Below, piece by piece: positions 50,310 through 51,811 of a stretch of DNA of 64,000 nucleotides. The notes under the pieces are model-generated. The model ran no database searches, was not told where the DNA came from, and saw nothing but the letters and a program-made list of their open reading frames with translations. Source of the stretch: a virus; the UHGV virus genome UHGV-0131811, one strand, 5' to 3'. The stretch's first letter is position 1; each line of letters starts with the position of its first letter. The translations under genes were made by a program, and so were the position numbers.

Positions 50310-50681
50310 ATGAAAGCTAAGAGTGCAAAAGACTTTTATTGCTTCCTACAATCCTATATCAATTCCGTGCAAAATGGTGAAAGGTACAACCTTAATGATG
50401 TTATCCCAACACCTTTGACATGGAGACTCAGTAAATGGCCTGAAGAAGATATTACACCAACAATCGAACAGCGTACCTACAAACCTGAAATCAATATTCC
50501 AGACTCTGAGAATCTATTATACCCAATGTTCCATATTGTTGGTCTTGGAAGATTCCTTATGGATATCCAGTATGTAATTGGTAAAGGTTATAAGGTTAAA
50601 GGTATTGTCGTTGGTGATGTATCTCCGAATCACAAAGGTTATTTTAGACTAAACGCACATTTAGAGGCTGAAAAGAAATGA
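50310..50681 (+). CDS. Hypothetical protein, paralogue of the N-terminal domain of the next gene
   Basis: 123 aa; shares ~120-aa domain with 50678..51811 (both have FxxFV..YINxV..G.RY, KWPEEDI / YWPEADI, FLMDIQY / FFMDLQY). Confidence 0.5.
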   Translation: MKAKSAKDFYCFLQSYINSVQNGERYNLNDVIPTPLTWRLSKWPEEDITPTIEQRTYKPEINIPDSENLLYPMFHIVGLGRFLMDIQYVIGKGYKVKGIVVGDVSPNHKGYFRLNAHLEAEKK

Positions 50682-51811
50682 TTAAAGCAAAGACTTACCC
50701 AGACTTCAAAGAGTTTGTGAAGGGCTTCGTTGCAAATGTAAAGGCTGGTAAGAGATATGATTTTAGAACATATCAAGAGGCTATTTTACCACTCACCTAT
50801 AGTTCGTATTGGCCTGAAGCTGATATTGCAGAAGTTGAGAAGTTTGACTACAAACCAGACTACAAAGTTCCATTTAGTGATGAGTTGCTTTACAGCGTTG
50901 GTGCTCAAATGAGAACTTCTGACTTCTTCATGGACTTACAATATGCAATTATCAATGGTAAAGATGTTGATACAGTTTATTGTGAATGGCTGGCAAGAGT
51001 TAAACCATTCTCAATGCTGAATGCTAAGTTGAAGGATGCTATCAAGCCACCATCAATCACTCAGCAACCAACCAATCAAACAGTAAATGAAGGTGATACA
51101 CTTACCCTAAGCGTTATTGCAACCAATGCCACTGGATATCAATGGAAAAAGGATGGTGAGGATATCACTAGCGCCACATCTGCAACCTACACAAAACAAT
51201 CTGTAGCACCTTCTGATGCTGGTTCTTATACTTGTGTTGTGTCTGGAGAGGCTGGGACAAGTGTTACCTCAGATGCGGCAACAGTTACTGTCAACGCACT
51301 GCCTGTTATTACACAGCAACCTTCTGGTCAGACCGTCAATGAGGGTGGAAACATCAACTTGGAAGTGACTGCAACAGGTGCAACAGGTTATCAGTGGAAG
51401 AAAGATGGCTCTGACATTCCTTCGGCTACAGATGCAACCTATAGTAAGTCTGGTGCTCTGCCAGCAGATGCAGGTTCATACACTTGCGTTGTAACAGGTG
51501 CAGGTGGTTCTGTCACTTCTAGCCCTGCAACGGTTACTGTTAACGCACTTCCGGTAATCACTCAACAGCCAACCAATCAAGAAATCACTGAAGGTGAGAC
51601 CTTAAGTCTGAATGTTGTGGCAACAGGTGCAACAGGCTATCAGTGGAAGAAGGGTGAGGAAAACATCCCAGACGCAACTACTGCAACTTACACCAAAGAA
51701 GGTGCGACCGCTGCTGATGCAGGAAGCTACACCTGTGTAGTTACTGGTGCAGGTGGCTCTGTAACATCTAATGCAGCAACAGTTACAGTTAACCCAGCAG
51801 GGGAGGCGTAA
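50678..51811 (+). CDS. Protein with N-terminal paralogous domain and three tandem Ig-like repeats
   Basis: 377 aa; three ~80-aa repeats ITQQPxxQTVNEG...ATGYQWKKDG.DI.SAT.ATY.K...DAGSYTCVV.G..GSVTS..ATVTVN; directly upstream of endolysin. Confidence 0.55.
   Translation: MIKAKTYPDFKEFVKGFVANVKAGKRYDFRTYQEAILPLTYSSYWPEADIAEVEKFDYKPDYKVPFSDELLYSVGAQMRTSDFFMDLQYAIINGKDVDTVYCEWLARVKPFSMLNAKLKDAIKPPSITQQPTNQTVNEGDTLTLSVIATNATGYQWKKDGEDITSATSATYTKQSVAPSDAGSYTCVVSGEAGTSVTSDAATVTVNALPVITQQPSGQTVNEGGNINLEVTATGATGYQWKKDGSDIPSATDATYSKSGALPADAGSYTCVVTGAGGSVTSSPATVTVNALPVITQQPTNQEITEGETLSLNVVATGATGYQWKKGEENIPDATTATYTKEGATAADAGSYTCVVTGAGGSVTSNAATVTVNPAGEA

Follow-up and report, generated by a model that had tools for sequence, protein, structure and literature searches.

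A hexamer-centre capsid decoration gene and a stand-alone paralogue of its capsid-binding domain beside the endolysin of a Felixounavirus phage

Why should a phage gene for a protein with immunoglobulin-like (Ig-like) repeats lie next to a lysis enzyme and far from the structural genes? The question is raised by two open reading frames (ORFs) on the plus strand of virus genome UHGV-0131811, at 50310–50681 and 50678–51811 of the 64,000-nucleotide stretch that was analysed (the window). A reading made from the DNA letters alone (the sequence-only reading) had described the two as paralogues, the longer being fused to three Ig-like repeats, directly upstream of the endolysin, and had found their position puzzling because Ig-like domains in phages usually decorate virion surfaces. 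The coordinates and the anatomy were borne out, and the expectation of a surface protein was correct, the long protein being one that decorates the capsid. The supposed oddity of the gene position did not stand, as it is already explained in the literature. We conclude, with a probability of about 85%, that the long gene encodes the decoration protein named Hex-Dec and the short gene a functional, stand-alone paralogue of its capsid-binding domain (CapBD).

The phage belongs to the genus Felixounavirus. Its DNA is 96–97% identical to that of Escherichia phage wV8 and relatives, and a DNA search returned 207 phage records with at least 80% query coverage, nearly all of them Felixounavirus and the best being 97% identical.

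The long gene (50678–51811, 377 amino acids, aa) was identified by its PDB and PHROG matches as a Hoc-like decoration protein of capsid hexamer centres, of the Hex-Dec / Sf14 gp20 type. In a phmmer search of PDB, its product aligned from residue 1 both with 9ncf chain S (“Immunoglobulin-like domain protein”, 460 aa; E 3.9e-301) and with 9c2d/9c3a chain S (“Putative tail protein”, 372 aa; E 8e-169). The former is Hex-Dec of Bas63 (Escherichia phage JohannRWettstein), solved by cryo-electron microscopy (cryo-EM; 9NCF chain S; Sci Adv 2025, PMC12609058), and the latter is gp20 of Shigella phage Sf14, solved by the same method (9C2D / 9C3A chain S; Commun Biol 2025, PMC11821841). The sequence-only reading had named an ordinary, known accessory protein as the outcome that would speak against it, and for the long gene a solved accessory protein is what was found (9NCF_S, 9C2D_S). 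The identity of the long gene is thus already known, having been described and solved in close relatives.

In both phages the decoration protein is a monomer whose N-terminal CapBD of ~120 aa plugs the hexamer centres of a T=9 head; the 60 pentamer-adjacent hexamers are occupied and the true three-fold-axis hexamers are not, while the outward-pointing Ig-like domains move too much to be resolved (PMC12609058, PMC11821841). In Sf14, salt bridges link Arg79 and Arg107 of gp20 to Asp221 of the capsid protein, and the authors explain the absence of gp20 from three-fold hexamers by a shift in the geometry of Asp221, which then fails to meet the two arginines; gp20 was also detected in virions by mass spectrometry (PMC11821841). 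In 2010, mass spectrometry of purified Felix O1 virions had revealed the homologue gp36 (294 aa, two Ig domains) at 44% coverage. In the phage described here, the long protein has both Arg79 and Arg107. The major capsid protein, the partner of the decoration protein, has Asp at position 221; it is encoded at 34196–35302 on the minus strand and matches Felix O1 gp58 at its N-terminus. Given the ~97% identity to its relatives, the long protein would be expected at the centres of pentamer-adjacent hexamers in this phage also. A Hoc-like role in adhesion or in the sensing of aggregation, as proposed by the authors of the structures, may apply as well.

Four segments can be distinguished within the long protein. 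The CapBD, delimited by translation, contact residues and alignment, comprises aa 1–122 (50678–51043). It is followed by Ig-like repeat 1 (aa 123–206; 51044–51295) and repeat 2 (aa 207–289; 51296–51544), both placed by Pfam, repeat search and protein alignment, and by repeat 3 with a short C-terminal tail (aa 290–377; 51545–51808), which is equivalent to repeat 4 of Bas63 Hex-Dec. The number of repeats thus agrees with the original count of three. Ig_3, Ig_2 and I-set each match in three stretches (whole-protein Pfam E-values 5.6e-34 to 6.3e-27), and repeat search and protein alignment give a period of 249 nt (83 aa) with repeats 70–71% identical to repeat 1. Tandem Repeats Finder missed the array, the identity at the DNA level being too low. 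The protein as a whole is acidic (isoelectric point, pI, 4.5), with a pI of 5.5 for the CapBD and of ~4.2 for each Ig repeat.

Compared to Bas63 Hex-Dec, the long protein keeps repeats 1, 2 and 4 and is devoid of repeat 3 (query residues 200–375 align to 283–458 of the Bas63 protein). Family members have lengths of 210, 294, 377 and 460 aa, each step corresponding to one 83-aa repeat and the series to one to four repeats, and the Bas63 authors likewise report one to four Ig domains among species (PMC12609058). As a sequence pattern, this series is what in-register recombination between Ig repeats would be expected to produce.

As a separate observation, the Ig repeats (51044–51808) find their highest-scoring PDB counterpart outside phages in GhpA, the grappling-hook protein of Aureispira (9flp_A; E 6e-69, ten stretches), with animal Ig proteins scoring far lower.

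The short gene (50310–50681) encodes a protein of 123 aa (14.3 kDa, pI 8.6) that ends right after the CapBD and so has no Ig-like display domains. Its relationship to the N-terminus of the long protein, which the sequence-only reading had called clear, is supported by BLASTP (36% identity over 101 aa, E 4e-17). The short protein also matches the capsid-binding domains of known structure (E 6e-12 and 2e-11) and tested positive for the CapBD fold. Direct DNA repeats spaced 371–374 nt still mark the duplication, and the data show that the short gene is a tandem copy confined to the capsid-binding domain. No match was obtained for the short protein in Pfam, NCBIfam or PADLOC. Among PHROG families, it matches 4463 (“unknown function”) and, more weakly, the long protein's family 3995 (E 3e-15). 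Its equivalents are wV8 gp42, Felix O1 ORF37, VpaE1 ORF40 and bas63_0125. A text search of the Bas63 and Sf14 structure papers (PMC12609058, PMC11821841) found no mention of the short paralogue, and the Sf14 supplement does not list the protein.

Which of the two copies is the derived one can be deduced from their divergence. The nonsynonymous substitution rate (dN) of the short protein is 2–4 times that of the Hex-Dec CapBD, and distant CapBD proteins that occur as a single copy score higher against the long protein's CapBD than against the short protein; we therefore regard the short gene as the derived copy. Pairwise ratios of nonsynonymous to synonymous substitution (dN/dS) for the short protein are 0.09–0.19 where dS is not saturated. 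An intact frame of 122–124 aa is found in about 233 of 253 phage records, and the Shine-Dalgarno sequence (AAGGA) is good. Judged by these sequence characteristics, the short gene is functional and under purifying selection. It is also dispensable; one viable lineage carries it as a pseudogene.

The distribution of the domain is narrow. Homologue searches based on a word index retrieved close Ounavirinae relatives only, while a profile search of 1.84 billion representative proteins returned 13 matches, one of which (P0102) is repetitive and probably spurious; with so few matches in a set of this size, the CapBD family must be small. The stand-alone short form is limited to the Felixounavirus/Mooglevirus/Suspvirus group and one diverged metagenomic relative, and no other relative of the CapBD fold was found in PDB. 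Some distant CapBD proteins (P0099, P0100 and P0104) appear to carry a C-terminus of the Big_2 type rather than of the Ig_3/I-set type, which is confirmed by Pfam for P0099 only. Two database entries stand apart from this distribution. ACZ55588.1, attributed to “Staphylococcus phage SA1” in the VpaE1 supplement, is 99% identical to the short paralogue and looks mislabelled or contaminated, and one “Staphylococcus” record is also found among the Felixounavirus DNA matches.

The pair does lie directly upstream of the endolysin, as had been stated: the adjacent gene (51811–52275, plus strand, 154 aa) is a Phage_lysozyme (Pfam E 9e-41). The three genes are tightly packed, the short ORF's stop overlapping the long ORF's start (ATGA, 50678–50681) and the long ORF's stop overlapping the endolysin start (TAATG, 51809–51813). 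At its 5' edge, after the upstream gene, the block is bordered by a GC-rich hairpin (AGGGGC-TTAT-GCCCCT, 50271–50288, plus strand), the equivalent of which is annotated in wV8 as a rho-independent terminator before gp42; our terminator scan made no call at this position, where the T-tract is weak. An intrinsic terminator-like hairpin followed by a T-run (52285–52302, plus strand) closes the block and is annotated in wV8 too. In wV8 the block corresponds to gp42, annotated as hypothetical, gp41, labelled “tail protein”, and the endolysin p13.

The same succession of short paralogue, Hex-Dec and endolysin genes is seen in Felix O1, wV8, UAB_Phi87 and Bas63 (Felixounavirus), Moogle (Mooglevirus) and SUSP1 (Suspvirus). 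It also occurs in a diverged 87-kb metagenomic phage in which the gene copies are 45–62% identical (45% for the short protein). In a more distant metagenomic phage, the same neighbourhood contains a lone CapBD gene, which has no Ig domains and is immediately followed by a Phage_lysozyme gene. Since this Ig-less CapBD is already beside the lysozyme, the linkage between the two predates both the duplication and the present Ig array. That gene (L011, 4001–4462, protein P0103) specifies a single-copy CapBD with a 30-aa low-complexity tail rich in Lys, Ser and Glu.

The remoteness of the block from the structural module, as claimed in the sequence-only reading, is real. Structural genes occupy the minus strand from roughly 18 to 43 kb, and the major capsid protein gene is ~15 kb away from the block on the opposite strand, with a tRNA cluster in between. 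The same situation had been reported by the Bas63 authors, who place the gene >10 kb outside the structural module (PMC12609058), and it is this report that answers the positional puzzle. The Felix O1 paper had also noted that the gene is well separated from other morphogenesis genes.

The region between the module and the block contains several further features. A cluster of 23 tRNA genes (42370–47018, minus strand) is arranged in several tight groups and separates the structural and packaging module from the block. Beyond it, and divergent from the plus-strand block, are genes for a 471-aa DUF2828/DUF7788 protein (47184–48599, minus strand; PHROG 850, “RNA-binding protein”) and for a DUF5681 protein (48681–49052, minus strand). 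This gene pair also flanks the CapBD-lysozyme block of the distant metagenomic phage L011. Within the major capsid protein gene, an antisense ORF of 308 aa initiated by GTG (34268–35194, plus strand) is probably a chance ORF.

Expression data are available from Felix O1, where reverse transcription PCR (RT-PCR) assigned ORF36 (Hex-Dec) and ORF37 (the short paralogue) to the late class with a maximum at 60 min, a class that also includes the portal, sheath and fibre genes. The endolysin (ORF35) is of the middle class with a peak at 25 min, which is also the peak of ORF38. Because its timing differs from that of ORF36/37, the endolysin may have additional transcriptional input in Felix O1. That the long-gene stop overlaps the endolysin start and yet the timing differs hints at separate or additional transcriptional control within the block. 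Together, these data suggest that the pair is late-expressed accessory DNA outside the structural module rather than part of a lysis cassette. A lysis role for either gene was considered and rejected, as neither protein has a transmembrane segment or a match to a lysis family. A sigma-70 scan gave nothing convincing directly upstream of the two-gene pair. A shared late-promoter motif upstream of 50310 was dropped as a candidate, its recurrence within the window being not above chance.

What, then, might a capsid-binding domain without display domains do? For Hex-Dec, the close relatives show that the CapBD docks as a monomer in the Asp-lined centre of the 60 pentamer-adjacent hexamers, and in the present phage a flexible, acidic string of three Ig-like domains would project outward from the head. 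The short gene would be translationally coupled to Hex-Dec via the ATGA overlap, and its product would bind hexamers of the unexpanded procapsid or the three-fold hexamers that Hex-Dec leaves free. It would act as a non-displayed partner or modulator of Hex-Dec loading and not as a stable component of the mature virion. We tentatively favour, at well below even odds, the general form of this proposal: that the short protein may still bind capsid-protein hexamers, either transiently or at low occupancy. The specific form, in which it would be a second component that recognises a hexamer state closed to Hex-Dec (the 20 three-fold hexamers or the procapsid) and so sets the site or time of loading of the Ig protein, is rather unlikely.

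Several observations weigh against capsid binding by the short protein. In all members of the short family that were aligned, Arg79 is replaced by Gly and Arg107 by Asn or Gln, and the K-P-F/Y motif of all other CapBDs has become K-G-Y. Felix O1 ORF37 is absent from a virion mass-spectrometry list that includes proteins of 10–14 kDa. VpaE1 ORF40 apparently escaped detection in virions as well, as deduced from the main text of that study, in which gp54, gp58 and gp68 are the only additions to the Felix O1 list. Bas63 encodes the short paralogue, yet its 3.1 Å capsid map has no density on the hexamers that are free of Hex-Dec (PMC12609058). In the Sf14 map, too, there is no extra hexamer density (PMC11821841). 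As a separate point, the middle timing of the Felix O1 endolysin versus the late timing of ORF36/37 argues against a simple single operon.

Some of these observations give weight to a different explanation, namely that the short protein has kept the fold and taken on a job unrelated to the capsid, so that it might bind a host component or another phage component late in infection. The loss of the contact arginines, the changed K-P-F/Y motif, the 2–4 times faster evolution and the absence from virion proteomes and maps would all be accounted for, as would the switch in charge from an acidic CapBD (pI 5.5) to a basic short protein (pI 8.6). It is harder to reconcile with the tight linkage to Hex-Dec, with overlapping stop and start codons in all lineages that have the short gene, or with the shared late timing, and the short protein has no match to any defence, anti-defence or other functional family. 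We consider a non-capsid role doubtful.

Alternatively, the short protein could decorate the capsid in its own right, occupying the 20 three-fold hexamers without Ig domains, so that two proteins divide the hexamer sites between them. It has the CapBD fold and is expressed late with Hex-Dec, and the residues that are changed are exactly those, Arg79 and Arg107, which the Sf14 authors invoke for the exclusion of the long form from three-fold hexamers. A basic protein would suit an Asp-rich hexamer centre, and icosahedral averaging would smear out the density of a monomer that sits on a three-fold axis. However, neither cryo-EM study detected density at the three-fold hexamers, the protein is missing from Felix O1 virions (and apparently from those of VpaE1) where other small proteins were seen, and a viable lineage has lost the gene. 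Stable occupancy of the three-fold hexamers is thus improbable. We do not file the short protein as a decoration protein because it lacks both the Ig domains and the contact residues, and shares only the fold with the family.

That the short ORF is a decaying, functionless leftover of the duplication is very hard to maintain for a frame that is intact in most records, has dN/dS values of 0.09–0.19, persists at 45% identity in the diverged metagenomic phage, is preceded by a good Shine-Dalgarno sequence and, in Felix O1, belongs to the late transcripts. The probability that is not taken up by these readings falls to functions beyond those proposed here.

For the long gene, the tail function given in most database records (“tail protein” or “putative tail protein”), in PHROG 3995, which is filed under the category “tail”, and in the Felix O1 paper, where gp36 was called “major tail protein”, is virtually untenable, as two independent cryo-EM structures (9NCF and 9C2D) put a near-identical protein at capsid hexamer centres and the Bas63 authors state that this label is wrong in most Felixounavirus genomes (PMC12609058). 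The label stems from similarity to Ig-bearing tail-tube proteins, and the PHROG matches show that this similarity is confined to the Ig region; the “Hoc-like” PHROG matches, too, are restricted to residues ~121–290.

For the long gene, then, the value of the present analysis is corrective: most of the ~250 Felix O1-like genomes, among them many candidates for therapy and biocontrol, wrongly assign to the tail a protein that decorates the capsid. What had gone unreported is the conserved, late-expressed, Ig-less CapBD paralogue, a modest but testable lead. Should the short protein bind capsid hexamers, it could help to explain why Hex-Dec is found on only 60 of 80 hexamers and could serve as a minimal handle for the engineering of capsid display; as a second component with its own hexamer state, it would provide a paralogue-based mechanism for site-selective capsid decoration. 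Should it not bind the capsid, it would illustrate on a small scale how a structural domain can be co-opted for a different task.

Among known systems, T4 Hoc is the classical parallel. It is also a non-essential monomer at hexamer centres in which a small capsid-binding domain carries an acidic string of Ig domains outward, and the same function has been proposed for it. However, the capsid-binding domain of Hoc is C-terminal and follows the Ig domains, so that the domain order is reversed relative to the long protein, which does not qualify as a member of the T4 Hoc family when membership is judged by a homologous C-terminal capsid-binding domain. The Ig domain of T5 pb10 (5LXK; 8ZVI, “Decoration protein”) matches the long protein at E ~3e-11, but pb10 has a single Ig domain and no similarity was detected between the capsid-binding domains. 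Sf14 gp20 is much closer, having a CapBD and three Ig domains (372 aa), the same Arg79 and Arg107, and a monomer at pentamer-proximal hexamers of a T=9 head; it differs in belonging to the genus Mooglevirus and in its more diverged Ig repeats. The Mooglevirus relatives of Sf14 have a short paralogue that is ~74–76% identical to the short protein described here. The closest system is that of Bas63, a phage of the same genus with the same gene order. Its Hex-Dec has four Ig repeats (460 aa) compared to three in the present phage (377 aa), while the two proteins hardly differ in the CapBD and in Ig repeats 1 and 2 and share the last repeat. The short paralogue of Bas63, bas63_0125, is 84% identical to the short protein of the phage described here.

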